Source: an uncultured Gemmatimonadaceae bacterium (GTDB taxonomy: Bacteria > Gemmatimonadota > Gemmatimonadetes > Gemmatimonadales > Gemmatimonadaceae). From it: a stretch of 55,106 bases of DNA. Of this stretch, positions 2,960 through 49,722 are shown in pieces. The first letter of the stretch is position 1. Each line of letters opens with the position of its first letter. Below the pieces are notes generated by a model. It ran no database searches, was not told the origin of the DNA, and saw nothing but the letters and a program-made list of their open reading frames with translations. The position numbers were made by a program, and so were the translations under genes. The stretch covers positions 1-55,106 of the forward strand of contig CAWGJO010000043.1 in assembly GCA_963822945.1 (NCBI GenBank). Reading direction: 5' to 3'.

Positions 2960-5399
2960 ATGGACCGTGACACGTTTCGGCGCCTCATCGACGCCGTGGG
3001 TCAGGCAATGGAACGGAGTCCGGACGACCGCGACGGCTTTCTCGCCGACGCGCTCGCCGACGACCCCGGGCTCCTGGCGGAAGCACGGGCGCTGGCCGCC
3101 GAGGCCGACGCAACTTCGCTCGACCTGGCGACGGCGCGGGTGGAGTCCATGGTGGACCGCGCGGCCGCCACCGCCCTGCCGGCGCCGATTCCGCCGCCCG
3201 CGCACATCGGCCCCTACGAGATCGTCCGCCAACTCGGCCACGGCGGCATGGGCGTGGTGTATCTCGGGCGGCAGAGCGCCCCCCTCCAACGCGACGTCGC
3301 CATCAAGGTCATCCGGCCGGGCACGGCGGATCCGGAAACGCTCGCCCGCTTCTCCATCGAGCGGCAGGCGCTGGCGCGCATGGCGCACCCCGCCATCGCC
3401 CGCGTGTTCGACGCGGGAACCACGGAGGCCGGCCTGCCCTATTTCGTCATGGAGTTGGCGCAGGGGCCGCCGATTACCGATTACTGCGACGAGGACCAAC
3501 TGGATCTCGATGCGCGGCTCGACGCTCTTCCGAACCGTGTGCGAGGCGGTCCACCACGGGCATCAGCGCGGAATCATCCACCGCGACCTCAAGCCCTCCA
3601 ACGTGCTCGTGACCCGGGTGGAGGGGCGCGCGATGCCGAAGGTGATCGATTTCGGCATCGCCAAGGCGGTGAACGGTGCGCAGGACGGCGAGAGCGTCCA
3701 CACCCGCGCCGGCGCCATCGTCGGCACGCTGGACTTCATGAGCCCCGAACAGATCCGCGGAGACGGCGACGCAGTGGACGTCCGCTCGGACGTCTACTCG
3801 CTCGGCGTGATCCTCTATCAACTCGTTTCCGGGCGGCATCCCTACGACGATTCGGGGATTCACCGCGTCGGGTTGCTCGAGGCGCAGCGCATCATTCTGG
3901 AAACGGATCCACCGCGCCCGAGCCGCCACCCGCACAGCGATCCGCGCGTCGCGTCGCCGGAACGCGGGTCCCGGATCGGGCGGCAGCGCCGGCGCCGGCA
4001 GGAGCTGGACTGGATCGTGATGAAGGCGCTGGAGAAGGACCCCCAGCGCCGCTACCAGTCCGCCCTCGCGCTGGCCGAAGACCTGGACCGGTACGCGCAC
4101 GATCGTCCGGTGCGCGCGGGACCGCCGGGGCTCGCCTACCGCACGCGCAAATTCGCCCGGCGCCACCGGCTCGGCATCACGGCGGGCGGCGTCATGGCGT
4201 TCGCACTCGCCGCCGGCACGGTGGCCGCCTCCACGGGCTTCGTGCGCGCCCGGGCCGAGGCGCGGCGCGCCCAGGCCACCAGCGACTTCCTCGCCAACCT
4301 CCTCGCCTCGGTGAGCCCCGACAAGCAGGGGCGCGCGGTGACCGTGCGCCAGGTGCTCGACTCCGCGCGGCGCCGCCTGCTGGCCGGCGAGTTCGCCAAC
4401 GATCCCGAAACGGAGGCGTCGCTGGCGCTGGTCATCGGTCAGAGCTACGGCGGCCTGGGACAGTACCGGGAGGCCCGCCCCCTGATCCAGCGCTCGCTCG
4501 ACCTGCGCCGCACCCTGTACGCGCCCGACGACCCGCGCGTCGTGGAATCCCTCTACGCGCTCGGCACCGTGGAATGGCATCAGGGCGACCTCACGCATGC
4601 CCTGGCCGTGCGCCAGGAACTCGCGCGACTCACGGCGCGCCATGCCGACACCGATCCCATCGACCACGCCGAGTCGCTGAGCAATCTCGGCAACACATAC
4701 GCCGACCTGGGACAGTCCGACCGCGCGGTGACGTATCTGCGCCAGGCGGTGGCGCTGGCGCGCCGTGCGCACGGCGACAGCGCGCAACTCGGCCTCGCCC
4801 GGTTCCTCAACAACCTGGGCTCGGTGTACTTCGACCAGCAGCGCTTCGACAGCGCCGCCCATGCCTTCGAAGACGCGCGGCAGATTCGCGCGCGGCTGCT
4901 CGGCGAGCACAGCGACGTCTATGCCATCACCCTGATGAACCTCGGCAACGCGACGCTGCATCTCGGCAAGCTCGCCGACGCCGAGCGGATCCTGCGCCAC
5001 GACGTGAGCCTCGAGGAACAGATCTTCGGCAGCGACCACCCCACCACGGCGTACGCGTACGCGGGGCTCGCCGAGACGCTCCTGCGCCAGGGACATCCGG
5101 ACAGCGCCGAGGTGTACATCCGGCGCGCGCTCGCCATTCGGGTGGCGCACGCCACCGACCCGTACTGGCGGGTGGCCATCGCGCGCCGCCAGTTGGCCGA
5201 TGTGCTCATTGCCGAGCACCGGCTGGCCGACGCGGAAACCCAGCTCCGCACCGCGTGGCAGGGGCTGGCTGCGGCCGGCGAGACGTCGATGCCCCAGGCC
5301 CGGGATGTCGCGCGCGACATGGCGCGGGTGCAACAGCTGCGCGGCGATTCGGCGCAGGCGACGACCTGGGAGGAGCGGGCCGCCGACGTGAGATACTAG
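2960..5399 (+). pseudogene. Ser/Thr protein kinase with C-terminal TPRs, frameshifted near 3520 (possibly sequencing error)
   Basis: LGHGGMGVVY and VAIK in one frame; HRDLKPSN, DFGIAK, DVYSLG, TM and TPRs in the other frame. Confidence 0.85.
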
Positions 5400-7094: not shown

Positions 7095-8508
7095 TCAGGG
7101 GAAGATTCCCAATTCCGAATATGAGAGGGCAATCTTGTCGATGACGTGTACGAACGCCGCGGTGCGAAGACTACTTCCGTTCGGGAGCCGGCGCTGCGAT
7201 TCCACGATCTCACGATACGCGACCACCATCGTCTCTTCCAGGCCGGAGTTCACGAGGTCTGCTTCGTCCGCTCCGTGTACGATCGCGTCTCGATCCGCTC
7301 CGGAAAAGTGCGTACCCGTTGCTTGCTCAATGGCGCCCAGGAGACGGTTCTCCGCCATCTCCTCGTAACGCTTTCCGATTCGGCCAAACCGCACATGAGA
7401 CAGGTTCTTGAGCCATTCGAAATAGGAGACGGTGACCCCACCGGCGTTCGCATAGAAATCCGGAATCACCAGGATCCCCTTCCCCGCGAGGATGTCTTCC
7501 GCTTCGGGGGTCGTTGGGCCGTTGGCGCCTTCGAGCACGATCCTGGCCTTTACTCTGGGCGCATTTTCGGCGGTCAACTGCCGCTCCAGCGCCGCAGGAA
7601 TCAGCACATCACACTCCAACTCCAGCGCGTGGGCCGTGTCGGGGATATTGGTGGCGCCAGGGAAGTTCAGGATCGATCCCGTCGCTTTGCGATGTTGAAA
7701 CACCTCCGCCTCATTCAAGCCTTTCCAGTCAAGGATGGCGCCTTCCATCTCCGCGATCGCGACGACGGTGGCGCCCGCCTCGCGGCAGAACTTCGCCGCG
7801 TGATATCCAACATTGCCAAGCCCCTGCACGACCAGACGCTTGCCCTCGATTCCCGGCGATAGCCCGAGTTGCCGCATTCCCTCTTCTTGTGCACACGCTT
7901 CCCGCAGCGCGTAGTACAGGCCCCGTCCCGTTGCTTCACGACGGCCGCGAATACCGGATTGCGATACGGGTTTGCCCGTCACGCAGGCCGAGCCGTTGAT
8001 CTCTCCGGGATTCAGGCGCCATGTAGGTATCGACAATCCAGGCCATTTCCCGTTCGCCGGTTCCGTAGTCGGGCGCCGGAACATCGAGGCCGGGTCCGAT
8101 CAGATTCTTCTTCATGAGTTCGTGCGTGTACCGCCTGGTGATGCGCTCGAGTTCCTCCATGCCGTAGTTCTTGGGATCGATCCGTATCGCTCCCTTCGCG
8201 CCGCCGAAGGGCACGTCCACGAGCGCGCACTTGTAGGTCATGAGCGCCGCAAGGGCCATGACCTCGTCTTCGTCCGCCGCCGAGCTGTAGCGGATTCCGC
8301 CCTTCACCGGAAGCTTGTGGTGGCTGTGCTCGGCCCGCCATGCAGTGATGACCTCGACGCTGCCGTCCGCCTTCCGGTGCGGAAACTCGAAGCGGTAGAC
8401 GCTGTTGCACGCCTTGATGTGGTCCAGCAGGCCCCGGGGATGGTTGGTGAGCGACGCGGCGCGATCAAACGCGCGCTGGACGCCATCGAGAAAACTGGGA
8501 TTCGGCAT
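7095..8508 (-). pseudogene. gdhA: Glu/Leu/Phe/Val (glutamate) dehydrogenase, frameshifted near 8017
   Basis: [20 protein letters not shown] in 5' frame; [32 protein letters not shown] in 3' frame. Confidence 0.9.
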
Positions 8509-8770
8509 GACATGCCCCCGCATGTAGGCAGCGTGCAGGTTCGAGCGCCCGACTCTCACAGGCAGTTCAATCGCACCCGTGAGAGTATGGGGGACACCGC
8601 AGACAGCGGCAACTGACGGGGATTCTTCGTCTTGGACGGCGAGACGCGACGCCGCGCACCTGGCCATCGCGCGATAGGCGCCATCGTACCAGCGGTTGCC
8701 CTCCTCGGCCTCGTCCCGCCATATCTCATGGGCGTGATTCACCTTCCTGACCCCGGGATCCCAGACGCAC

Positions 8771-11110
8771 ATGGCCCACGTCTCCCATCGGCTCTCCAAC
8801 GCCTTCCAGGGCGCCCTCGCCGGTGGCGGCGACCCGGCCACCTCCCCCCTCTACGTCTTCGGCCCCTTCCTCAAGCTGATCGTGGTCGCCGGGGTCGCCG
8901 AGGTCACCTTCGGCGCCAGCATCTGGCTCGTGGTCTTCACGGTCGTCATGGTGTCGGCGATGTACCGGCTGGTGATGCGCTGGGTGGTGGACGGGAGCGG
9001 TGGCAGCGGCCTCACGGAGGAGGAGTTCGGTTCGTGGGCGGTCAAGGTGAATGCCGGCATCACATTTGTCGAATACACCCTGACCTTCCTGGTGAGCATC
9101 GCCGCGCTGGTCACCTTCCTGGCGGACCGCGCGCCCGCCCTCAACGACGCGCTGGCGGGGCTGCCGCTCCGGACCGTCGTGGCGATCCTCTTCAGCCTCG
9201 GGATCGGAGTCCTGGTCAACCGTGGTCCGAAAACAGCCGCGCGCGCCTTCGGTCCCGCCACGCTGGCCGTGCTGGTTCTCCTCTGGGTGATGATCGGGGC
9301 GACGATCTGGCAGCGCGGCTTTCACCTGCCCCCGTTCAACATCCGGGCGTTTCACGCGGACTACCTCCACTTCACGCTGGCCGGGTACGCCCGGATCCTG
9401 GCGCTGATGACGGGCATCGAGATCTTCGCCAACATGGTGGCGGCCTATGACGGTCCCGCCGCGGAGCGGAGCCGGAAGGCGTTCGGTAGCCTGATCATCA
9501 TCATGGGGACGACGTGCCTCACGATGCTCATCGTCGGACCGGACATCCTCGCCGGAGCCGACGTGGCGAACACGCACGTCTCGGTGTTCACCCAGGCCAT
9601 GGATCACCTGCTGCCCAAACCGCTGCCGTGGGTGGGCACGATGATCGGGGTGCTGGTGCTCGCCTCCGCCGCCGCCGCGAGCGCGCAGGGCATCCAGAAC
9701 CTCGCTCTCGGGCTTCGCTACCGGCACTACATCCCCGGCTGGCTCGGCGCCCGCAACCACTTCGACGTGGCCGATGCGCCGGTCTGGGTCGAGGTCGGCC
9801 TCGTCGCCCTCTGCTTCCTGGCGTTCGGCACCCACGAGGAGACCTACCTCGCCATCTACGCCGCCGGCGTCTTCATTCTGCTCAGCATGACGGGATGGGC
9901 GGCGGCGAAGCGGCTGCACCGCGAGATGGGCACGAAGTTTTCGGCGGGCGCCGCGGCTACCCTGGCGGGCACCATCCTGGCCGCGCTCCTCACCAGCGCC
10001 GCGACCCTCATCATTTTCGACGAGCGGTTTGTCGATGGGGCATGGACCTACCTCGTGTTCATCCCGGTGCTCTATTTCGTGTTCAGCCGCTACCGAAGCC
10101 AGATGGGCCCGCCGAAGCCGCTCGATGAGCACCTGGGTCGGTTCTTCGCGAGTCAGTACCTGCTGCCGCTCCAGCGGCACGACATCCCGACGGAGAATTT
10201 CGCCATCGAGCGGATCATGGTCCCGCTCGACGGGTCCGCCCTCGCCGAACACGCCCTCACGGTGGCCGAGCTGCTGGCGCGGACCACGGCCGGGCAGCTG
10301 GACCTGATGTCGGTGAGCGCGGGGGGCGGGGGCGGCGTCGCGGACGCCGCTGAGCCGACGTCGGCCCCCGAGACCTACCTCACCCGCATGGCCGAGACCC
10401 TGGGGCAGCGCGGCATTACGGTGGGAACCAGTTTTCGCAGCGGCAGCGTTGCCGAGGAGATCGGGCGCCACGGCATCGAGAGTCAGGCCGACGTGATCGT
10501 GATGGCCACGCACGGGCGCTCGCGGGTGGACAAGATCCTGGGCCGGAACATCGCCATGGCGGTGGTGCGGCAGACCGAGTTGCCGGTGCTGTTGATCCGC
10601 CCCACCGACGCCTGGCCCAGCCGGCACACCGCCTTCAAGCGGCTCCTGGTCTCCGTGGACGGGTCCGCCGACTCGGAGGACGTGCTGCCATGGGCGCGGG
10701 TCCTCGCGCGGTCGTTCCAAAGCACGCTCGTCCTCCTCACCGTCCCGGAGGCCGAGGGCGAGGTGCCGCGCCTCCGGCAATATCTCGAGTCGGTGGCCAT
10801 GGCGCTGCGGGGGATCGGCATCCCGGTGGAGATCCGGGTGACCGGCTCGGGCGCGAGCCGGACGATCGTCGACGTCGCGCAGACGGAGGAATGCGACCTG
10901 ATCATGATGGCCACCCGCGGTCGTGGCGGGCCGGAAGAGATCGGCATCGAGGTCGGTAGCGTCACCGAGCGGGTAGCGCTTTCGGCCCACTGCCCCGTCT
11001 TCACGGTGACCGTGACCGGCCTCGCGAAGCGGGGGCGCGGGGCCCGCGACGATGATCCTTCGTTGACGACGCCGTCTTCAGCGGAAGTGGCTGCGCGCGT
11101 ACGCGAGTGA
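8771..11110 (+). CDS. APC-family permease fused to two universal stress protein domains
   Basis: About 12 hydrophobic segments, then [16 protein letters not shown] and [19 protein letters not shown]. Confidence 0.8.
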
Positions 11111-15267: not shown

Positions 15268-16881
15268 TCAGCCGGGATTGCGCGCGAACTCCCGCTGCCA
15301 CGCCGCCAGAATATCCGTCAGCCCCTCGGCCGGCTCCTGCCCGGCCTCCCAGTCGTGCGGCGAACCGGCCGCCAGCAAGAGCTGTCCCACCGCCGCATGG
15401 TCGCGCCCGTCGCGAGTGTCGCGCCCGTCGCGCCCATTAGGTCCGTGCATACGCGCCCCCTCGGCGGCCCACACCAGCGGCTGCCCGTGGAATTCGCGGT
15501 CGCGCACCGTCACCGACGCCCCGTGCGCCAGCAGCATGCGCACCGCATCGGGCCACCCTTCCATCGCTGCCGCGTGCAGCGGCGTCTTGCCGATCTCGTC
15601 GTCGCCGCGGTTGATGTCGAACCCGCACAACAGGAGCACGTCCAGCGCCGCCGCATCGCCCCGCTCCGCCGCCTGGATCAACACCAGATAGTGCTCCGGC
15701 GCGATCTCGTCGCGAAGCTGCGGGCGAGCGGCGAGCATCGACTCCGCCGTCGGCCGATCGCCGCGGCTGCATGCCGCCACCAGTCGGTCCACGTCCGACA
15801 CGTCGTCCGACGCCCCGTGCGCCAGCAGCCAGTCGGCCACGGCGCTGTTCCCATTCAGTGTCGCGACGGCGAACGGTGACCGTCCGTCGGCACGGCGACG
15901 CGTGACGTCGGCGCCCCGCGCCACCAGCCGCTCCACCATTTCCACGTCCCACCCACGCGCCGCCATGTGCAACGGCGTCTCACCGTTGGCATCGAACACC
16001 GGGTCGGCGTCGGCGCCATGGTCGAGCAGCCAATAGATCCCTGCTGGTGTGCGCGACCACTGCATGATCGCGTAGAGTGGCGCGGCTCCGTCGGTGGCCC
16101 ACGGGTGATTCACGTCCACGCCGTACTTGAGCAGCAGGTCGAGCGACGGGATCATGCCGCCCGACGCCGCGATGGGCAGCGTCACACCGTCGCTGGGATT
16201 CGCTCCGGCCTCCAGCAGCACCTCGGCAAGTTCCAGATTGCGCGTCGAGCAGACGGCGCCCCACAGGACCGGACGATGCACTCCATGGTGCAGCCAGGGC
16301 ACACGCGTGTTCGGGTCGACGCCGAGCGCGATGAGTTGGCGGCCGATCGCCACGGCGCCCTCGCGCCGGGCGTCGGAGTCGGAGCGCAGCGCATTGTGGC
16401 AGAGGTAGACGATCGGCGGCCACTCGCGGGGGCCGCCCGCCTTCGTGGCGAGCGATGGATCCTTGGCCAGCCGCACTTCCACCGCGGCGGCGTCGCCCAC
16501 CAGCAACTCGGTGTGAAAGTTCGCGCCGGCGATCCCGGCGTGCAGCGCCAGCAACCGTTCGGCGCGGTCGGTGCGTTCGTCGGTGCACGCCTCGATGAAC
16601 TGCGTCACCGCGGAGCCGAATTCGAGGGTGAGTTCCTCCACGCGTTCGCGCAGGGCATTCCACGAGTCGAAACCGAGTTCGCGCGCGATCACCGACTGGG
16701 CGTCGTGCAGGGCCACCGGCGCACGCGCAAGTTCGTCGTCGGAGCTGGCGGCGAAGGCGGGGAGCGTGCGGAAGCGCGCGAGCGCGGCGGGGTCTCCGGC
16801 GGTGCCGGAGCGGAGCAGGTCCTTGGCCTGGCGCTTGAGCTGGTCGAGGCTGGGACGTGCGGGTAGCTGCTGGGCCGTCAT
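15268..16881 (-). CDS. Ankyrin-repeat protein with LPxRPxLxxLKxQAK N-terminal domain
   Basis: GETPLHMAA, GKTPLHAAA and LL..GA repeats; RBS GGAGGT. Confidence 0.85.
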   Translation of the reverse strand: MTAQQLPARPSLDQLKRQAKDLLRSGTAGDPAALARFRTLPAFAASSDDELARAPVALHDAQSVIARELGFDSWNALRERVEELTLEFGSAVTQFIEACTDERTDRAERLLALHAGIAGANFHTELLVGDAAAVEVRLAKDPSLATKAGGPREWPPIVYLCHNALRSDSDARREGAVAIGRQLIALGVDPNTRVPWLHHGVHRPVLWGAVCSTRNLELAEVLLEAGANPSDGVTLPIAASGGMIPSLDLLLKYGVDVNHPWATDGAAPLYAIMQWSRTPAGIYWLLDHGADADPVFDANGETPLHMAARGWDVEMVERLVARGADVTRRRADGRSPFAVATLNGNSAVADWLLAHGASDDVSDVDRLVAACSRGDRPTAESMLAARPQLRDEIAPEHYLVLIQAAERGDAAALDVLLLCGFDINRGDDEIGKTPLHAAAMEGWPDAVRMLLAHGASVTVRDREFHGQPLVWAAEGARMHGPNGRDGRDTRDGRDHAAVGQLLLAAGSPHDWEAGQEPAEGLTDILAAWQREFARNPG

Positions 16882-16906
16882 GTAACCTCCATGCTGAATG
16901 CCAGCG

Positions 16907-17039
16907 GTCCGCAAGCCGGCCAGCACGGAGACAGCCGTGCAGTCATTCGATCGGGAGGGGTGGACTCAGTCCTTCGCGCGGACCCGCGGGCGCCCCAGGC
17001 GCACGCTCGAATGTTGAAAAGGACCGCCGATCAAGTCAA
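16907..17039 (-). promoter_or_regulatory. Putative promoter plus conserved structured 5' leader (copy 1)
   Basis: TTGACT-N18-AACATT, GCGCC hairpin, GTCCGC-GCGAA-GGAC-TGA-GTCC-ACC...GCGGAC; shared with 29632-29767. Confidence 0.6.
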
Positions 17040-28175: not shown

Positions 28176-29606
28176 CTACCCTTCGCCTCCCAGCGCCGCC
28201 CGCACCGCATCATAGTCCCCCTCCTCCCGACGCCAGCTGTTCCGCTCGCCATGCTCCGCCCACCCGAGCGGCGTGCCGCCGAAGTGGCGCTCTTCGACCG
28301 TGGGATCGGCACCGGCGGAGAGAAGCGCACGGACCAGCGCGGCGTTCCCGTGCCAGGCGGCCCAGTGCAGCGGCGTCGCTCCGGCTTCGTCGCTGACGGT
28401 CGCCGGCCACCCCGCCTTCAGCATGAGCCGCACCGCCGCCGCATCGTCCTGCGACGCCGCGGAGAGTATCCGCTGGCGCGCCTGGTCGGTGAGCGACGCC
28501 GCCGCAGCGTCTCCCGCCGCGAGTTGACGCTCCACCTCCGCCTCGTCCCCGGCATCACAGGCCGCGGCGAGCCGCAAGTCCTCCGGAGAACGCTCCATCA
28601 ACAGGGCGTACACGTCGTCGTGCCCGGCACGACGCGCCACGGCGTGCGCACTGCGGTAGTTGCCGAGCGTCCAGATGTAGATCGTTCCGCCGGCGCGCGG
28701 GTTCCGCATCGGGAACCAGCGCGGGGACACCATGGTGTACACCGACGCGGGATCGCGGTCCAGGTGCTCGCGCACGAGCGCGACATCGCCTACGGCGCAG
28801 GCCAACAAGACGTCGGTGCGGCACCCCCGCGCAATCAGCATCCTCACGATCTCCGGATGGTCGCCCACCAGATACTGTGCCGGCGTCGATTCGTGATCTA
28901 CGTCGAGGGCGTCGATATCGGCGCCGTGCGCGAGCAACAGTTCGGCAATCTCCACCGTCGACGCCACGTGCAGCGGCGTCTGGCCGTCGCCGTAGCGCGC
29001 CGTGACCACGGATGGATCGGCCTCGATCAGTTCCCGCAGACGGTCGATCATGCCGAGCTGCGCGGCGTCGTGCGCATCGACCATCGCGCCACGGGCGATA
29101 AGATGGGCATTCACCTCGGCGTGTGGCCCGAAGGCACTGAAACCGCCCGCCCACCAATGCGACCGCTGATCGATGTTCGCGCCCGCCTCGAGCAGTACGT
29201 CGATCATCGCGAGGTTGCGTTGTTTTGCTGCCGTGATCAGCGGTGTGGCGCCGAACGCGCCGCCGGGCAGCGCCTCGTCGAGCCGGCGCTTCACCGCCGG
29301 AAAGCGGGCGATCACATCGCGCACGCGTTGGGCGTCGTTGAGGAACACGGCCGCCTCGAGCGCGGCCGCCGGGTCCTCTCCCGCCAGCGAGAGCACGTGG
29401 TGCTTGAGCTGGGCCCAGTTCGAAAACTCGTACGAACGCGCGAGCGCATGCTGGGCATCGGCGAGCGTGGGAGCGGGCGCCCCGACGCGGCGCGGTCCGA
29501 ATGCCTCGACGGCTTCGGCCTTTCCGGCGGCGAAATCACGAAGCAGCGCCTTGGCCTGCTTCTTCAGGTGTTCGAGGTTCGGCCGCTCGGGCAGTGCACG
29601 AGACAT
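28176..29606 (-). CDS. Ankyrin-repeat protein with LPERPNLEHLKKQAK N-terminal domain
   Basis: GQTPLHVA, GATPLHWAA, GGTPLGWA; RBS GGAGG. Confidence 0.85.
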   Translation of the reverse strand: MSRALPERPNLEHLKKQAKALLRDFAAGKAEAVEAFGPRRVGAPAPTLADAQHALARSYEFSNWAQLKHHVLSLAGEDPAAALEAAVFLNDAQRVRDVIARFPAVKRRLDEALPGGAFGATPLITAAKQRNLAMIDVLLEAGANIDQRSHWWAGGFSAFGPHAEVNAHLIARGAMVDAHDAAQLGMIDRLRELIEADPSVVTARYGDGQTPLHVASTVEIAELLLAHGADIDALDVDHESTPAQYLVGDHPEIVRMLIARGCRTDVLLACAVGDVALVREHLDRDPASVYTMVSPRWFPMRNPRAGGTIYIWTLGNYRSAHAVARRAGHDDVYALLMERSPEDLRLAAACDAGDEAEVERQLAAGDAAAASLTDQARQRILSAASQDDAAAVRLMLKAGWPATVSDEAGATPLHWAAWHGNAALVRALLSAGADPTVEERHFGGTPLGWAEHGERNSWRREEGDYDAVRAALGGEG

Positions 29607-29631
29607 CTTGCCTCCTTCCATGAAGCCCGGT

Positions 29632-29767
29632 GTCCGCTGGTGTCGGGCAGAAGAGAGGTCGATGCTCGGAACCGCGAGAATCGCTCAGGTGGGATGATCC
29701 CTTTCCGCGGACGGGGGGCGACCTGCGGCGCCTGCCGGAATCTTCCACGGCGAACGTTGGAGATCAA
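29632..29767 (-). promoter_or_regulatory. Putative promoter plus conserved structured 5' leader (copy 2)
   Basis: TTGATC-N17-AAGATT, GGCGCC hairpin, GTCCGC-GGAAA-GGGA-TCA-TCCC-ACC...GCGGAC. Confidence 0.6.
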
Positions 29768-29864: not shown

Positions 29865-31277
29865 TCAATTGGAGACGGACTTCCCGCTGTAAGCCACGCC
29901 AAGTCTGAACAGGGCCCACATCACGCCGGTCACGGCGGTCGCGATCATCGTCAGCGCCAGATCGGGCTGGAAGATGCGCAACGTCCTCATGGATACGCCG
30001 GAGAGCGGCGGGATCACGAAGAAGAAGCTCCAGGCGATCGCGAGCGTCGTGAGGAGCGGAAACCACAGGCTGAACAGGCCGAATGCGCCCGTTTTGGCAC
30101 GCAGGGCATCGCGATGAAGCCATGCCCAGACCATGCTGAGTACGAACGCAATCGGCAGGAGCACCAACGCCACGAAGATGCGCCTTCTGTTGCCATCGGC
30201 TCCCTTCGCCGGCATAGCCAGGCCGAGGGCTCTGGCCGTGATGCCGTTCCGGAGCGCGGCCGTTTCTCCAAACCCGATTCCACTCCCTGCGTTCACGAGC
30301 ACCACTGCGCCCTTCCGTTCCGCCGGAACCATGGTGGCGAGCGTCTCGATTCCGGGGCTGGAGCCCGAGTGGAACACGGTTCCCTTGGCGGTGTCGACGA
30401 ACCAGCCGAAGCCATAGAAGGGAGACGCCGCGCCGGCCGGGCGCATCATCTCGGCCTTGCTCTCGGCGCTGATGACGTCGTCCGCGCCATTCATCATGAT
30501 CGCCAGATATCTGGCCACGTCACGGGCGCTTGCGATGACCCCGCCGGCCGGAGCAGTCACCCGGTCGGTTCTGGTCGCTTCGAATGGGCGCTTGCTGCCG
30601 AACCACGGCCGATGCCCCGTCGCCATCTCATCATGGCGCCCTCCGTCGGCGACGAAGCTGTCGTCCATGCCGATCGGCTCGAGGATCTTCGTCTTGATGT
30701 AGTTCGCGTACGTCTCACCGCTCACCGCCTCGATGAGGGCGCCGAGAATCTGGTAGTTGGCGTTCGAGTACTCCCACCTCGCACCAGGTTCATGAGCCGG
30801 CGTCCATTGCGCAATCTGCTCGACCTGGCGCGACAACTCGTCTCCGTTCCGGGTCGGGTCGGCGTGCCTGCTGTTGCCCTGGAGGGTGGAATACCCGCTC
30901 GTGTGGCTGAGCAGTTGCCGGATCGTGATCGCGCCCGATGGGTGACCTGAGAATGCGGGCAGGTAGTGCGCAATCCCGGTGTCCAGCTCCACCTTGCCGG
31001 CCTCCACCAGTTGCATCACGGCCATTGCGGTGAAGCTCTTGGTAATGGAGCCGAGCATGAACGGCGTTTCCGGCGTGACCTTCCGGCCGCTGCCGATCAG
31101 GACCTCTCCGCGTGCCTCCGCGTGAATCTCGCCATGATCGACGACCGCATAGGCGAGGCCCGGGGCTCCGGACTTCGGCATCTCGGCCGCAATGAAGCGA
31201 TCAATCGATCCCGGCGGCACGTTCGCCTGAAATCCGGTGGACATTCCCAATGCGAGCCAGGCCAGGACACGCCGCAT
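29865..31277 (-). CDS. Serine hydrolase (beta-lactamase/PBP family) with C-terminal TMs
   Basis: SITK (SxxK), YSN, HSG. Confidence 0.85.
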   Translation of the reverse strand: MRRVLAWLALGMSTGFQANVPPGSIDRFIAAEMPKSGAPGLAYAVVDHGEIHAEARGEVLIGSGRKVTPETPFMLGSITKSFTAMAVMQLVEAGKVELDTGIAHYLPAFSGHPSGAITIRQLLSHTSGYSTLQGNSRHADPTRNGDELSRQVEQIAQWTPAHEPGARWEYSNANYQILGALIEAVSGETYANYIKTKILEPIGMDDSFVADGGRHDEMATGHRPWFGSKRPFEATRTDRVTAPAGGVIASARDVARYLAIMMNGADDVISAESKAEMMRPAGAASPFYGFGWFVDTAKGTVFHSGSSPGIETLATMVPAERKGAVVLVNAGSGIGFGETAALRNGITARALGLAMPAKGADGNRRRIFVALVLLPIAFVLSMVWAWLHRDALRAKTGAFGLFSLWFPLLTTLAIAWSFFFVIPPLSGVSMRTLRIFQPDLALTMIATAVTGVMWALFRLGVAYSGKSVSN

Positions 31278-31625
31278 ACCGTCGCCCCTCCGTTCAGTGT
31301 CGAGTCGTTCGAATTTCGCGACCACTCTTGTACGCGTGTTGGCCGAATCGCAGCTCGGCTAGCCACTGTCCGAGACGAAGCAGCTAATGGTCACGGCATA
31401 TCGGTTCTCAGGGATATACGCGGGATCTGAATCGTGCGGATGGTCCCACGTGCCTCGGTGGCGCTTATGTGGGGCTGCTGGAAGGGCGACGGCACGTGAA
31501 TGCCTACGTCGCAGTCCACCTTCGTCGCTTGCGCCAGCGCGATGCCGGGGATCGCCGCAACGCTCGTGCCGACGGCGAGTGCGACGAGCAGGAGATTCGT
31601 AAGGCGTCGGGCTGACGCCGCGCCG

Positions 31626-34456: not shown

Positions 34457-35905
34457 TCACCGTTCGATTCTCCGAACTCCCTGCGCGAAGTATCCGAGTG
34501 CCACCTCCATCGCGCGCCCGTCGACGGGCGTGAACGAAATCTCTCGCCATTCCGGCGCGCCCTCGGCGACGAATTCGCCCCCGCCCTGGAACGACAACGG
34601 CCGTCGGTCGAAGACCTCGGCAGAGTCCGCAGCGCCAGCCAATCGCATGATGAGGTCCACTCGCGGGCCGTCGGGCACGACGTCGAACCGAAAGGCGCCC
34701 GCGTCGTAGGTGCCCACGAACCGCGCCACCTCTTCCGGACGCAGGGGGCGGTCGCGAACCCGGGGTTCGTCGAGCCCGAGAAACAGGCGCGCGATCCGCG
34801 GCTCGAGCGCGGTGGCGACCTCGCTCGCCCCGTCGAGGTTCGCCAGGATGGCGATCGTGAGCGAATCGTCCGGATAGTGCGACAGCACCGCGTAGAAGCC
34901 GAGCACCCGTCCCGTGTGCACGATCCGGGGCCGGCCATCGAGCTTCGACAGGCCCAGCCCGAACCCATACGGCCACGAGCGGCCATCGTTCAACCGTGCA
35001 GGCGTGGTCATCCGCTGGTAACTCGACTTCGATACGACCCTGCCGCCCGCGAGCGCCTCGCTCCAGCGCGCCAAGTCCAGAGCGGTGGTCCATGCCGATC
35101 CCAGGTTGGGTTCCCACGCCACTTCGGGGCCATCGCTCGCCAGGCGGTACCCCCCGGCCACGTCTGGGTCGTCCGCCGACGGCCGGGGAGTCCAGGCAGC
35201 ATGGAACCGCTCCAGCCCTGCCGACTTCGCGACGTCGCCAATGGCCTCGTAGTACGTCTTGCCCGTCAACGAGGCGATGGCGTAGCAGAGCAGGTCGTAG
35301 TTGGGCTGGCTATATGAGAATCGTTCGCCCGGCGGAAAGTAGAGCGCTTTTCCGTAGAGCCCGCCAATGTCCTCCGCCGAGCTGAACCCCGCGCCGACGG
35401 CCGCATCCGGCACCGGACCCCACTGCCCGACATTCGGGCGCGCTGCGGCTGCGGCCCCATCCTCGCTCATCGTGCGCAGGCCCGAGATCTGGTGAAGCAT
35501 CTGCTCGATCCGGACCACGCGATTCCCCGTGTACAGACGGGGCAGAAACTTCGTGATCGGGTCGTCGAGCGAGAGCTTGCCCTGCTCGACCAGCCGCATC
35601 GTGGCGGCGGCGGTGAACTGCTTCTCGACTGAACCGATCGGAAACATCGTCCGCGGCGTGACCGGCGTCTGGCGATCCAGATCTGCCCAGCCGAACCCCC
35701 GAACCAACGCAACTCGCCCACCCTCGAGTACCGCCACCGATAGCCCGGGTATGTGGTGAGATACCCGGAAGCCATCCGCCTCGCGCTCGACGGCAGCCTG
35801 CACCTCGCGGTCGGCCGGCCGGCGGCCCGCCGCGGTGCAACTCGCACCTGCGACAAGCGCGACAAGCGACGTGATGCCGACCGCGGCGCACAGGCGGGGC
35901 TTCAT
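34457..35905 (-). CDS. Serine hydrolase (beta-lactamase family), probable lipoprotein
   Basis: SVEK, YSQ, HTG; hydrophobic signal ending AGASC. Confidence 0.8.
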   Translation of the reverse strand: MKPRLCAAVGITSLVALVAGASCTAAGRRPADREVQAAVEREADGFRVSHHIPGLSVAVLEGGRVALVRGFGWADLDRQTPVTPRTMFPIGSVEKQFTAAATMRLVEQGKLSLDDPITKFLPRLYTGNRVVRIEQMLHQISGLRTMSEDGAAAAARPNVGQWGPVPDAAVGAGFSSAEDIGGLYGKALYFPPGERFSYSQPNYDLLCYAIASLTGKTYYEAIGDVAKSAGLERFHAAWTPRPSADDPDVAGGYRLASDGPEVAWEPNLGSAWTTALDLARWSEALAGGRVVSKSSYQRMTTPARLNDGRSWPYGFGLGLSKLDGRPRIVHTGRVLGFYAVLSHYPDDSLTIAILANLDGASEVATALEPRIARLFLGLDEPRVRDRPLRPEEVARFVGTYDAGAFRFDVVPDGPRVDLIMRLAGAADSAEVFDRRPLSFQGGGEFVAEGAPEWREISFTPVDGRAMEVALGYFAQGVRRIER

Positions 35906-36061
35906 CTTGCCGCCGCTCCCGCGCGGATAGGGGTGAGGGATGGTGAGGGTCGTATCGGCGACCGCACGTTCTCCAGCGAGGCGCTCAACTTCGTCGCCGT
36001 CGGACGGGAAGAATGGGCGGAGCAGGAGCCGTTCGGTGGCCAGCCGGGGGATGTCTTTCAT
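35906..36061 (-). pseudogene. N-terminal fragment of a RimJ/RimL GNAT, in frame with the downstream hydrolase
   Basis: LATERLLLRPF..D...IPHPYP only. Confidence 0.65.
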
Positions 36062-40139: not shown

Positions 40140-40193
40140 AGCGAGCAGAGCCCTGCTGAACCCCACGCCGGCAGCAGCGGCGCCTCGTTAACT
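40140..40193 (-). repeat. Collapsed attC-family copy (R''/L'' arm intact, centre deleted)
   Basis: cccacgccggcagcagcggcgcctcgttaac; HigA stop codon lies in R''. Confidence 0.7.
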
Positions 40194-40493
40194 GGCCGGG
40201 GCGAGAACGGCGACCTCGCTCTCCAGGAGCTTCCCCAGCAGATCTCGTTGCACCTCAAGGTCGAAGCGCGCCTGAAGATTCAGCCAGAAACGGTCGCTCG
40301 TCCCGAAATAGCGCGCCAACCGCAAGGCCGTATCGGCCGACACCGCGCGCTTCCCATGCACGATCTCGTTCACCCGGCGCGCCGGGACGCTGATGTCGTG
40401 AGCCAAGCGATACTGGGACAGCCCGAACGGCTCGAGGAAGTCGTGCAGGAGCACTCCCCCCGGGTGAATCGCAGCCAGTTTGCGCGTCGTCAT
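40188..40493 (-). CDS. higA: HigA family antitoxin
   Basis: IHPG..L..FL, RRVNEIVHGKRAVSADTALRLARYFGTS..FWLNLQ. Confidence 0.9.
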   Translation of the reverse strand: MTTRKLAAIHPGGVLLHDFLEPFGLSQYRLAHDISVPARRVNEIVHGKRAVSADTALRLARYFGTSDRFWLNLQARFDLEVQRDLLGKLLESEVAVLAPAS

Positions 40494-40700
40494 TCCTTCT
40501 CCTACTTGATAGTCGACGATCTCGACTTCGTACGCATTGCCCCCTTGCCGTCGGAAACAGATCCGCCATTGATCGTTGACACGGATACTGTGCTGGCCGG
40601 CTCGGTCCCCGTGCAGCTTCGCCAGGCGGTTTCCGGGCGGGACCCGCAAGTCGTCGAGCCGCTCTGCAGCGTCTACCGCAACGAACTGAGGCAGCGCGCT
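40494..40700 (-). pseudogene. higB: HigB/RelE toxin remnant (no N-terminus, stop lost)
   Basis: DLRVPPGNRL..L.GDRAGQHSIRVNDQWRICF..VEIVDY. Confidence 0.8.
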
Positions 40701-40766
40701 CTGCTGAGATCGTAGGGCGCATCGATATTCGCCGCCCCCTTGCCATGCCGGAACGCTTTGCGTTAG

Positions 40767-40790
40767 ATACTGAACCGTATGGTTCAGCAT
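40767..40790. promoter_or_regulatory. Putative ArsR operator palindrome
   Basis: CTGAACC-GTAT-GGTTCAG overlapping the ATG. Confidence 0.6.
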
Positions 40791-41144
40791 TTGACGACCC
40801 GACTTGATACCTCGTTCGCCGCGCTCTCGGACGCCACGCGGCGCGGCGTGCTGGAGCAGCTCGGACGAGCCGACGCTTCGATCACGGACCTGGCCGAGAC
40901 GTTCCACATGACGCTCACGGGCATGAAGAAGCACGTCGGCGTCCTGGAGCGGGCGGGGTTCGTCACCACGAGGAAGATCGGGCGCGTGCGGACGTGCCGA
41001 CTGGGCCCGCGCCAAGTGGAGGAGGAGACGGCGTGGCTCGAGCGGTACCGCCGGCGCTGGGACGAACGCTTCGACGAGTTGGACAAGGTGGTCAGGGAAC
41101 TGACACTCAAGGAGAAGAGCGATGAACGCAGGAAGCGAAGGTAA
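40779..41144 (+). CDS. ArsR family regulator
   Basis: FAALSDATRRGVL, KKHVGVLE. Confidence 0.85.
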   Translation: MVQHLTTRLDTSFAALSDATRRGVLEQLGRADASITDLAETFHMTLTGMKKHVGVLERAGFVTTRKIGRVRTCRLGPRQVEEETAWLERYRRRWDERFDELDKVVRELTLKEKSDERRKRR

Positions 41145-41637
41145 GCCCGGCCCCGCGAAGAACCGCACCACGGTGGAGCGGACGTCGGACCGCGAGGTGG
41201 TCGTCACGCGGACCATCAACGGCCCGGCGCGCATCGTGTTCGAGGCCTTTACCAAGGCCGACCTGTTCACACGTTGGTGGGTGCCCAAGTCGATTCCCAT
41301 GACCCTGCTGTCCTGCGAGATCGACGCGCGTGTCGGGGGCAAGTACCGCCTGGTATTCGACCACGACCCCGAGCCTGTTGCGTTCTTCGGCACGTACGTC
41401 GAGGTGCAGCCCTACTCGCGTCTCGCGTGGACCAATGAAGAAGGCGGCGAGGGCGTGCCGGTCACCACGGTGACGTTCGAGGAACAGGGCGGGAAGACGC
41501 TGGTGGTCCTGCGCGAGACCCATCCGTCAAAGGAATCCCTGGACGAGGCCGGCACGGGAGCGGCCGAGGCGATGATCGAGACCTTCGATCAGTTGGAAGA
41601 GCTGCTCGTGGCGCTGGGTGAGAGCTCGGGAGGGTAA
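41122..41637 (+). CDS. SRPBCC/AHSA1 domain protein
   Basis: TRTINGPARIVFEA, DARVGGKYR. Confidence 0.85.
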   Translation: MNAGSEGKPGPAKNRTTVERTSDREVVVTRTINGPARIVFEAFTKADLFTRWWVPKSIPMTLLSCEIDARVGGKYRLVFDHDPEPVAFFGTYVEVQPYSRLAWTNEEGGEGVPVTTVTFEEQGGKTLVVLRETHPSKESLDEAGTGAAEAMIETFDQLEELLVALGESSGG

Positions 41638-48768: not shown

Positions 48769-49566
48769 CTAGCTCGCGAGGTCGTAGAGCAGTCTGTAGA
48801 AGGTCATACGCTCAACGTCCATGGGCACCCCGTACTCAGCCAGGAACAGGTCCTCGAAACCGGGACCCAAGTTCCACGTTAGGCTCCACGTTGCGACGGC
48901 GAGGTCCCACCATCGGTCTGCAACGCCCAACTCTCCAAGGTCGACGTATCCCGTCGCTCGCTCATCCTCGATGAGGATGTTCGGTAGGCAGTAATCGCCA
49001 TGGCAGACCACCAGGTCTTCAAAGCCGGGACAGGCTGATTCCAGGAGCTGGACGGCCTCAACCGGCGTCAGATGGGAGAACTCGACATGGAAGTCGCGTT
49101 GCTGGTCGATCAGCCCTGCCTCGAGCCGCTTGCGAACATGTCTAAGGGCCGCCCCTAGGCGGAAATCAAATGGGCAAGTCGCCACCGGAGCCATCTCGTG
49201 GAAGGCACGGAGGCCCCGAGCGAGGATCCGGGCAAGCGCCGCTGGCTCCTCCGTCAGCTTCGGATCCGTGGCGTCTCGGCCGGGCAGCGCGGTCGTCATC
49301 AGCCAGTCGATGGACGCCTCCGTTCCTTGGCGAACGACGCCGGGCACGGGCAGGTGGGGGTGCGCCCACCGCATGCGGTCCGCTTCACCCGCGAGAGCCG
49401 GGTAATGGCCGGCTTCGGCCAGCTTCACGAAGAACTCCGGGCCACCGCTGCGCACCAGGCGGTAGGTAACGGAATGCTGGGCGTACTGATGGGTGAGGAC
49501 CCAGTCGAAATCCGAGTAGCTTGCCTTCAGCTGCGGCGGTGGCTGCAGCCAACCCTTCTCGTCCAT
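48769..49566 (-). CDS. Aminoglycoside 3'-phosphotransferase family protein
   Basis: FFVK, E..RM.W, VVCHGDYCLPNILI, YVDLGELGVADRWWDLA, FYRLL. Confidence 0.85.
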   Translation of the reverse strand: MDEKGWLQPPPQLKASYSDFDWVLTHQYAQHSVTYRLVRSGGPEFFVKLAEAGHYPALAGEADRMRWAHPHLPVPGVVRQGTEASIDWLMTTALPGRDATDPKLTEEPAALARILARGLRAFHEMAPVATCPFDFRLGAALRHVRKRLEAGLIDQQRDFHVEFSHLTPVEAVQLLESACPGFEDLVVCHGDYCLPNILIEDERATGYVDLGELGVADRWWDLAVATWSLTWNLGPGFEDLFLAEYGVPMDVERMTFYRLLYDLAS

Positions 49567-49610
49567 ATCGCTCCCGCCACCCCCGTGCCAGATCCGTCCA
49601 TCGGACGGCA

Positions 49611-49722
49611 CTCTAACGCCGCGGCGCTCTGCTGCGGCGTTCCCTAATAGAATGCGGCAGGCGCCCGCAGGGCGCCAGCCGCCTCCCTACCTCACGCCGC
49701 CAGCAGCAGCGCCTCGTTAGGC
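49611..49722 (-). repeat. attC, long family
   Basis: ctctaac...gttaggc. Confidence 0.9.

Follow-up and report, generated by a model that had tools for sequence, protein, structure and literature searches.

Two genes for ankyrin-repeat proteins in the window (the whole stretch of 55,106 nucleotides analyzed here, from an uncultured Gemmatimonadaceae bacterium) are each preceded by the same arrangement of short sequence elements. The question raised by this locus is whether these elements form a cis-regulatory RNA and, if so, whether this RNA would respond to a ligand, as a riboswitch, or to the protein encoded downstream. A preliminary description, made from the sequence alone, had proposed a riboswitch-like or autoregulatory RNA-protein module tied to the two proteins' N-terminal domain.

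Leaders and genes of the window

Both copies of the leader are located on the minus strand, immediately 5' of the ankyrin-repeat genes. Gene 1 (15268–16881, minus strand) encodes a protein of 537 aa starting with the ATG at 16879–16881, and gene 2 (28176–29606, minus strand) a protein of 476 aa starting with an ATG at 29604–29606 that is preceded by a Shine-Dalgarno (SD) sequence. In each protein an N-terminal domain, hereafter NTD (encoded at about 16627–16881 and about 29382–29606, respectively), is followed by ankyrin repeats. The proteins are 28% identical overall and 38% identical within the NTD, which confirmed the common N-terminal domain that had been postulated.

Promoters were predicted upstream of both leaders. 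For copy 1 (minus strand) the -35 hexamer is TTGACT (17034–17039), at a place where the leader family is enriched in TTG[AC], and the -10 hexamer is CAACAT (17011–17016), in which the first T of the family consensus TAnnnT is degenerate. For copy 2 (minus strand) the hexamers are TTGATC (29762–29767) and GAAGAT (29740–29745), the latter also deviating from TAnnnT and lying 33 nt ahead of the kissing strand described below. The TTGAYY elements of the preliminary description stand as -35 hexamers, while CAACAT and GAAGAT, taken as -10 hexamers according to the register of the family, lie one base upstream of its AASATT.

In copy 1 (minus strand), hairpin P1 (GCGC; 16990–17002) lies at the predicted transcript start, and its loop Gs (16994–16996) pair in a pseudoknot, termed pseudoknot A. 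It is followed by P1b (16976–16987), a 2-bp stem that is G-C here, swapped relative to the C-G of the family, and presents the kissing strand GUCCGC (GTCCGC in the DNA; 16978–16983), then by the covarying hairpin P2 (GGAC-TGA-GTCC; 16962–16972), and by a conserved A with the 3' strand of pseudoknot A (16957–16961), which has 3 bp in this copy. The 3' domain (16886–16930) comprises an anti-SD strand (16921–16930), the SD-bearing strand (16886–16896) and the P4 stem (16915–16920/16900–16905), whose loop carries the kissing partner GCGGAC (16907–16912).

Copy 2 (minus strand) has the same parts: P1 (29718–29731), with the loop CAGG (29722–29725) pairing in pseudoknot A; P1b (CC/GG; 29705–29715), presenting the kissing strand GUCCGC (29707–29712); P2 (GGGA-TCA-TCCC; 29691–29701), which covaries; the conserved A and the pseudoknot A strand CCUG (after P2, down to 29686), giving 4 bp; and a 3' domain (29611–29658) with the anti-SD strand (29650–29658), the SD strand (29611–29619) and the P4 stem (29644–29648/29625–29629) with its GCGGAC (29632–29637). 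Every element named in the preliminary description was found in its place upstream of the two genes, on the minus strand, including GCGGAC 25 nt before the ATG in both copies. The 3' end had been set too short, as the element continues to the SD sequence (16886 and 29611). The structural elements stood, but the anti-SD helix, the P4 stem and, beyond the GTCCGC/GCGGAC pairing, a second pseudoknot had been overlooked.

The host genome (G000; 4.0 Mb, 88% complete) contains exactly two motifs and two NTD genes, matched one to one, which argues against a pairing by chance. Close relatives of the two proteins are labelled Gemmatimonadaceae/Gemmatimonadales and Vicinamibacterales by their sources.

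The contig (C43; window 5491–53475) is rich in accessory genes, and its GC content is 0.664 versus about 0.69 for the genome, falling to 0.62–0.65 beyond 36 kb. It carries two genes of the serine hydrolase/beta-lactamase family (29865–31325 and 34457–36061), an APH-family phosphotransferase gene (48769–49611), two VOC and two RibD_C genes, an AHSA1 domain gene, and genes for a formate/nitrite transporter and a Usp protein; no tRNA was found on the contig. One ORF (40188–41393, minus strand) matches a HigB-like toxin (residues 238–295) and then HTH_3 (residues 319–366), a HigBA-type pair in one frame, which reflects either a fusion or read-through that begins at a start further upstream. Glu/Leu/Phe/Val dehydrogenase domains extend over two overlapping ORFs in different frames (7936–8841 and 7095–8084; together 7095–8841, minus strand), suggesting a frameshift or an assembly error. 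A Ser/Thr protein kinase fused to many TPR repeats is encoded at 2967–5399 (plus strand).

Structure and distribution of the type I leader

The family to which both copies belong, here called type I, is a conserved, uncatalogued, structured 5' cis-regulatory RNA of about 125 nt, predicted to fold into two pseudoknots that are supported by covariation. Its 5' half consists of P1 at the predicted start, the 2-bp P1b whose loop shows GUCCGC, a purine linker, P2 and the conserved A; its 3' half consists of the pseudoknot A strand, a variable linker, the anti-SD strand, P4 with GCGGAC in the loop, and the SD strand. Pseudoknot A joins the P1 loop to the strand after P2 (3–5 bp), and the second pseudoknot is the kissing helix between GUCCGC and the GCGGAC of the P4 loop. 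Rfam 15 gave no match at gathering score in the window, in line with the absence of a recognized family in the preliminary description; at E ≤ 10, copy 1 had no match and copy 2 only mir-632 and M23 at chance level (E 3–4).

In a structure-free ranking by mutual information over 170 distinct leaders, the pairs of P2, pseudoknot A, P1, P1b and P4 came out on top, and the P1b pair 21-31 was CG in 149, GC in 11 and AT in 2 of these leaders. A second alignment held 48 matches of a covariance model (R1) at loci found through the protein, one of them a spurious partial match. It showed two-sided changes in 35 of 37 pairs and 92.6% of cells paired, for an alignment fitted to nested helices by a model that includes neither pseudoknot nor P1b; the pairing controls gave 0 of 500 for shuffles and 43–47% paired for slid partners. 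Mapped onto a tree built from 127 downstream proteins, independent changes from one Watson-Crick type to another number at least 25, 25 and 2 for three pairs of pseudoknot A, 4 for P1b, and 3, 4 and 3 for three kissing pairs. The kissing helix (6 bp) is nearly fixed in the leaders selected by pattern, and at the loci found through the protein matched swaps occur (ACCCGA/TCGGGT, ACCCAC/GTGGGT, GTTCGC/GCGAAC, ACTCGC/GCGAGT and GTCCGA/TCGGAC). The GTCCGC/GCGGAC pairing and the covarying P2 stem, both proposed from the two window copies, are thus borne out by strong covariation across the family alignments.

The promoter assignment draws on the same family. TAnnnT occurred at -40 to -32 in 106 of 165 leaders, versus 4 and 8 in control windows, with a peak 32 nt before GUCCGC, and TTG[AC] occurred at the matching -35 place in 74 of 165, versus 11 and 7. 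At the other end, the SD sequence is predicted to be paired in a helix, P5 (median unpaired probability 0.05 over 163 leaders), and its median unpaired probability rose to 0.41 when the upstream part was shuffled. From these predictions, the leader sits between the putative promoter and the start codon and contains a probable expression platform. The purine stretch GGAAAGGG was considered as an anti-anti-SD and dropped, there being no anti-SD covariation among the top mutual-information pairs. Two leaders look eroded: that of an NTD-VOC gene (L263, about 1420–1500), of which a short hairpin remnant remains, and that of L289 (1729–1873), in which the region of the 5' kissing strand is gone and the 3' domain is kept.

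A scan of GTDB genomes with a DNA pattern that held no protein information returned at least 120 stretches. Judging by record titles, the first 80 included Acidobacteriota, Gemmatimonadota, Actinomycetota (Streptomyces, Nonomuraea and Amycolatopsis), Verrucomicrobiota, Planctomycetota, Armatimonadota and Pseudomonadota, so that the motif is present upstream of homologues across many phyla. Among the matches listed, an NTD profile match lay directly downstream in 75 of the first 80 stretches and in 35 of 40 others; the 10 remaining stretches were three frameshifted NTD genes, four full motifs at contig ends and three matches judged by eye to be due to chance, without P1, anti-SD or SD. All 113 evaluable type I motifs among the matches listed therefore precede an NTD gene, and none another gene. 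One locus from unpublished data (L148, genome G067) is included in this count, in the panel of 28 proteins and in the neighbor screen described below, and was excluded from the RNA alignments.

Model R1 found 34 matches in 20 of 60 relatives, with up to five type I leaders in one genome; 31 lie directly before an NTD gene and three at contig ends. The NTD genes are patchy, occurring in 20 of 61 relatives and in 14 of 101, 14 of 151 and 8 of 201 genomes of three other groups. Starting from the protein, 61 loci were collected, nine of which coincide with pattern matches. R1 matched 47 of the 61 (44 at E ≤ 0.01), and two more (L014 and L296) have variant leaders recognized by eye. The 12 loci without a leader comprise two internal repeats and 10 N-terminal NTDs, four of which sit at most 80 nt behind another ORF on the same strand. 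No conserved neighbor genes were found among 177 loci; the top clusters were, as judged by eye, the NTD gene itself or apparent other frames.

Several individual loci deserve mention. A loose pattern, which proved too permissive, returned 74 stretches from viral contigs, among which a genuine leader and an NTD gene occur together only in L080 (an IMG/VR contig, 1475–1608), probably as host DNA or cargo. Behind intact leaders, the NTD genes of L134, L143, L149, L112, L161, L169 and L182 are frameshifted or stop early, and are either pseudogenes or long-read errors. L014, L294, L295, L296 and L323 encode short NTD proteins (about 170–190 aa) behind a variant leader with an altered kissing helix, that of L014 having no Pfam domain. 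At L321 (532–1036) a tRNA gene array, a typical integration neighborhood, lies just upstream of a variant leader and an NTD-DUF1835 gene.

The N-terminal domain and a second leader type

The NTD is about 80 aa long and predicted to be all-helical (pLDDT 85.7), and its profile matches 10,956 clusters at 50% identity. Ankyrin repeats follow in 24 of 28 downstream proteins chosen across clusters; behind other leaders the NTD is joined to LRR, VOC or DUF1835 domains or to no known domain, so the association is with the N-terminal domain, as had been proposed, and not with the ankyrin repeats. Members of the sequence library join it to ClpN with ClpX zinc fingers, FliM, FliG-C and winged-helix domains. 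The fusions to ClpN/ClpX zinc finger, FliM and FliG-C (P0126, P0137, P0143, P0161, P0225; P0146, P0168, P0217, P0252) and one to the Lon substrate-binding domain (L336, a type II locus, see below) present substrate-recognition modules without their enzymes, as seen in the part of the rows that was scanned. Both window proteins scored far below the cut-offs for Legionella Ank-effector families and MzaA, matching in the ankyrin repeats only.

Within many proteins the NTD is repeated. Scored with a profile built mostly from leader-linked copies, positions 15 and 19 of helix 1 are both K or R in 135 of 143 first copies behind a leader, against 7 of 83 internal repeats and 5 of 9 first copies without a leader. 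The internal copies have D or E at position 15 in 51 of 83, and keep the core Ala18 in 73 of 83. These alignments show a predicted basic face of the NTD to be maintained solely on the leader-linked copies.

No significant match to a relative of solved structure was found by sequence. Fold comparison gave a best E of 3.4 with Foldseek and a best Z of 3.9 with VIA-align (rmsd 4.5, 65 aligned), and neither these searches nor Pfam or sequence comparison matched the NTD to a known RNA-binding family or fold; the ESM Atlas held only unnamed clusters for the NTD and nothing for the type II protein. When both window NTDs were scanned against Pfam at E ≤ 10, the sole match was PF20066 (Glyoxalase_8; E 0.005, 17.4 bits versus a cut-off of 23.7). 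Alignment of the NTD with the N-terminal profile of PF20066 gave an HHalign probability of 96.9 (E 1.7e-10), and on this profile evidence the two are homologous. They share the patterns K..A[KR] and A..G..W; the window NTD differs from PF20066 in scoring below the Pfam cut-off, in an insert between helices and in its ankyrin fusion. Pfam's description of PF20066 mentions no link to RNA. The C-terminal barrel of PF20066 is weakly SH3-like (CAP-Gly/Tudor/chromo; best E 0.025).

Among 201 Pseudomonadota genomes, 15 carried PF20066, with 18 matches in all, of which 17 include the N-terminus; among 101 Actinomycetes genomes, one carried it. All 17 Pseudomonadota genes with the N-terminus, and the actinomycete one, are preceded by a leader with the same two pseudoknots, here called type II. 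It has P1 and a G(Y)4-type kissing strand (such as GCUCGC, GUCCGC, GCUUGC or GCCCGC) with a matching partner, then an optional hairpin, GGYGAA as an invariant element, the strand of pseudoknot A, and a long SD-pairing 3' hairpin. With three near-duplicates left out, pseudoknot A reached at least 5 bp in 12 of 14 non-redundant leaders, versus 37 of 182 crossed pairs. R1 scores type II weakly (best E 0.006), and it is the common architecture, kissing sequence and protein partner that suggest that the two RNA types are homologous. The leader of the PF20066 branch is distantly related and has both pseudoknots, so RNA and domain are paired in both branches. The Lys equivalent to the basic residue of the NTD is present in 66 of 66 type II proteins among the matches listed. 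Six type II-like patterns in the window's own genome were judged by eye to be chance matches in coding sequence. At G490:C1:3306327-3309240 (L332, L339) a PF20066 gene lies in two halves about 2.5 kb apart behind an intact leader, probably because of an insertion.

The type II pattern returned at least 119 stretches from metagenomes. Among the matches listed, 66 full motifs precede a PF20066-type NTD and 11 a transporter of the MATE family without an NTD (66 and 11 of 77 evaluable motifs); five others lie at contig ends and 37 were judged to be due to chance. MATE membership was confirmed on four partial proteins. The leader-linked MATE subfamily occurs in 6 of 121 genomes of one order, and all six encode PF20066. 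The order is leader-NTD-MATE in G388 and G554, and leader-MATE-NTD in G604, on Paracoccus aminophilus pAMI4 and on Rhizobium gei p2, which has a short MATE frame; G613 (three), G525 and G600 have separate leaders at distinct loci, the leader lying 220–330 nt before the MATE match in the last two. For the leader-MATE locus of the Ensifer plasmid pT173d, no NTD gene was found within 2.5 kb. The leaders that head MATE genes are the main departure from strict autoregulation; they are compatible with a small regulon run by the NTD in trans, and also with a riboswitch.

Mechanism and relation to known systems

The choice posed by the preliminary description leans, on comparative evidence, towards protein binding. 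We consider it somewhat probable (roughly 0.55) that the leader is a translational operator bound by the NTD, which would repress translation, with the fused C-terminal modules as sensors. In this mechanism, free NTD protein would bind the folded 5' junction and stabilize its docking, through the kissing helix, onto the SD hairpin, turning translation off. A signal, either a protein or a small molecule, would be bound by the C-terminal module (ankyrin, LRR, SH3-like barrel, Lon-N, ClpN/ClpX zinc finger or VOC), and the repressor would be titrated or inactivated, relieving repression. In alphaproteobacteria, a MATE efflux pump may be governed by this loop as well, either within one operon or in trans. 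Since most partners are protein- or peptide-binding modules, including the weakly SH3-like PF20066 C-terminus, a protein signal is plausible for type I; the VOC and MATE associations suggest small toxic molecules for part of type II.

Binding by the NTD is supported by the constancy of this domain beside varying C-terminal partners, by the pairing of leader and domain in the PF20066 branch as well as in type I, by the basic residues kept on leader-linked NTDs and lost in internal repeats, by the position of all 113 type I motifs among the matches listed before the NTD, by the predicted SD pairing within the leader, and by the genomes with a leader-headed MATE gene, 6 of 6 of which encode the domain, often in one operon. 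It is weakened by the lack of a match between the NTD and any known RNA-binding family or fold, by the 10 of 61 N-terminal NTDs without a leader (5 of 9 scored keep both basic residues), and by the consideration that DNA, ribosomes or membranes are equally conceivable targets of basic N-terminal helices. The coupling of RNA and protein may also partly reflect co-inheritance of adjacent DNA. The leaders of MATE exporters (11 loci among the matches listed), including that of pT173d without an NTD within 2.5 kb, weaken it further, a leader before a MATE exporter being a classic riboswitch-type association. These leaders, together with those before VOC/bleomycin-binding-like fusions, speak for an orphan translational riboswitch, in which the junction and the kissing helix would form a pocket for a toxic metabolite, a xenobiotic or an ion that gates the SD sequence, the NTD proteins and the MATE pump being merely response genes. 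The complex double-pseudoknot fold fits such a riboswitch as well, its many near-invariant nucleotides, among them those of the almost fixed 6-bp kissing helix, exceeding the obvious needs of a domain of 55–80 aa and suiting a small-molecule pocket, as do the integration of the SD sequence into the structure, the broad distribution and the presence of up to five type I leaders per genome. Riboswitches, however, usually stand before several gene families that are unrelated but belong to one pathway, whereas one domain follows all 113 evaluable type I motifs and 66 of the 77 evaluable type II motifs among the matches listed, and the MATE cases co-occur with an NTD-type domain. A riboswitch gives no reason to expect that internal repeats lose the basic residues, and a conserved alternative fold was not found. 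This explanation appears less likely, at about half the weight of NTD binding.

Two further explanations are both improbable. The leader could be static, either damping translation or shielding the mRNA 5' end for a protein sensitive to dosage, without any regulated switch. In favor of this, P1 begins exactly where transcription is predicted to start, and in the predicted ground state the SD sequence is paired; but such a damper needs neither two pseudoknots, nor a covarying isolated 2-bp stem, nor junction bases invariant across phyla, and it leaves unaccounted for why another RNA type goes with another branch of the NTD. Slightly lower still we place an RNA that is processed from the mRNA to become a stable partner of the NTD (an RNA antitoxin, a scaffold or a self-cleaving element), with the SD pairing secondary. 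Type III toxin-antitoxin and AbiF-type RNAs have pseudoknots and pair one-to-one with a gene, which the RNA-gene pairing and pseudoknots found here recall. The leader, however, is single-copy, without repeats and with the SD sequence inside its fold; the C-terminal domains are binding modules and not nucleases, leaders also stand before MATE pumps, and no Rfam ribozyme or antitoxin matched.

NTD binding would place the system beside several known ones. Ribosomal-protein leaders are autogenous leaders bound by protein, such as the pseudoknotted E. coli rpsO/S15 operator, and the present leader resembles them as a structured 5' element that includes the ribosome-binding site and a pseudoknot and precedes the gene or operon of its proposed binder. 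The regulated gene or operon encodes the candidate binder except at those MATE-first loci for which the domain lies elsewhere or was not located. Unlike in the autogenous leaders, the NTD is non-essential, patchy and fused to many modules, and the RNA has two pseudoknots with a long-range kissing helix and matches no Rfam leader family.

ANTAR is a helical output domain of small size that binds RNA and is joined to sensors of various kinds, and its target RNA is a short dual hairpin. ANTAR target RNAs are structured, recruit one protein domain, often overlap the ribosome-binding site and regulate translation (PMC8164766). The combination of a structured RNA containing the ribosome-binding site with a small, variously fused helical domain is shared, but Pfam shows no ANTAR match for the NTD, the RNA forms a double pseudoknot and not a dual hairpin, and its targets are almost exclusively its own gene or operon and the MATE gene, whereas ANTAR governs large regulons.

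In ZTP and other pseudoknot riboswitches, a 5' domain with a pseudoknot strand and then a small hairpin is joined through a variable linker to a 3' hairpin, whose loop completes a long-range pairing. The architecture of 5' domain, linker and 3' hairpin with long-range pairing is similar in the present leader, which, in contrast to ZTP (pfl), has an additional pseudoknot and an SD-pairing helix. The gene associations given for ZTP are purine and folate genes (PMC7266159); no such genes lie downstream of the present leader, which had no pfl match even at E ≤ 10.

Rfam gave no match over any leader at 20 homologous loci of both types (15 of type II). A search of full texts, titles and the beginnings of abstracts found no description of either leader type, "PF20066" was absent from the full texts searched, and "ankyrin", "glyoxalase" and "MatE" were absent from the supplements of PMC2864571. 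A preprint (bioRxiv 10.64898/2026.10.21.760802) lists, in the portion available, 20,149 candidate clusters, one of them upstream of glyoxalase, monooxygenase or NmrA genes; its main text does not contain "ankyrin", and its supplements or database may still hold either type unnamed. The sister leader type II, the homology to PF20066 and the link to MATE are new here.

The leaders thus form a real, uncatalogued clan of cis-regulatory RNAs of at least two types, found in many phyla and tied to an uncharacterized domain, and leader and NTD together are a probable new gene-control system. The explicit structure model and the named candidate partner make its mechanism testable in cultured hosts. A bolder and still tentative proposal, which we hold at less than even odds, is that these proteins are widespread, unrecognized one-component transducers acting on RNA, with an RNA-binding output domain of about 55–80 aa, interchangeable protein-binding sensors or VOC domains, and a clan of double-pseudoknot operators that co-evolve with it and control how the sensor itself and MATE pumps are translated when a protein signal or a xenobiotic stress signal arrives. 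If the leader is bound by protein, a very large family whose sole present labels are "ankyrin repeat protein" and "glyoxalase superfamily protein" would gain a function, and a new RNA-binding domain and a portable translational switch would be added. For a riboswitch, the associations with MATE and VOC would be the first clue to its ligand. Either outcome bears on the control of an efflux-pump subfamily in soil alphaproteobacteria.
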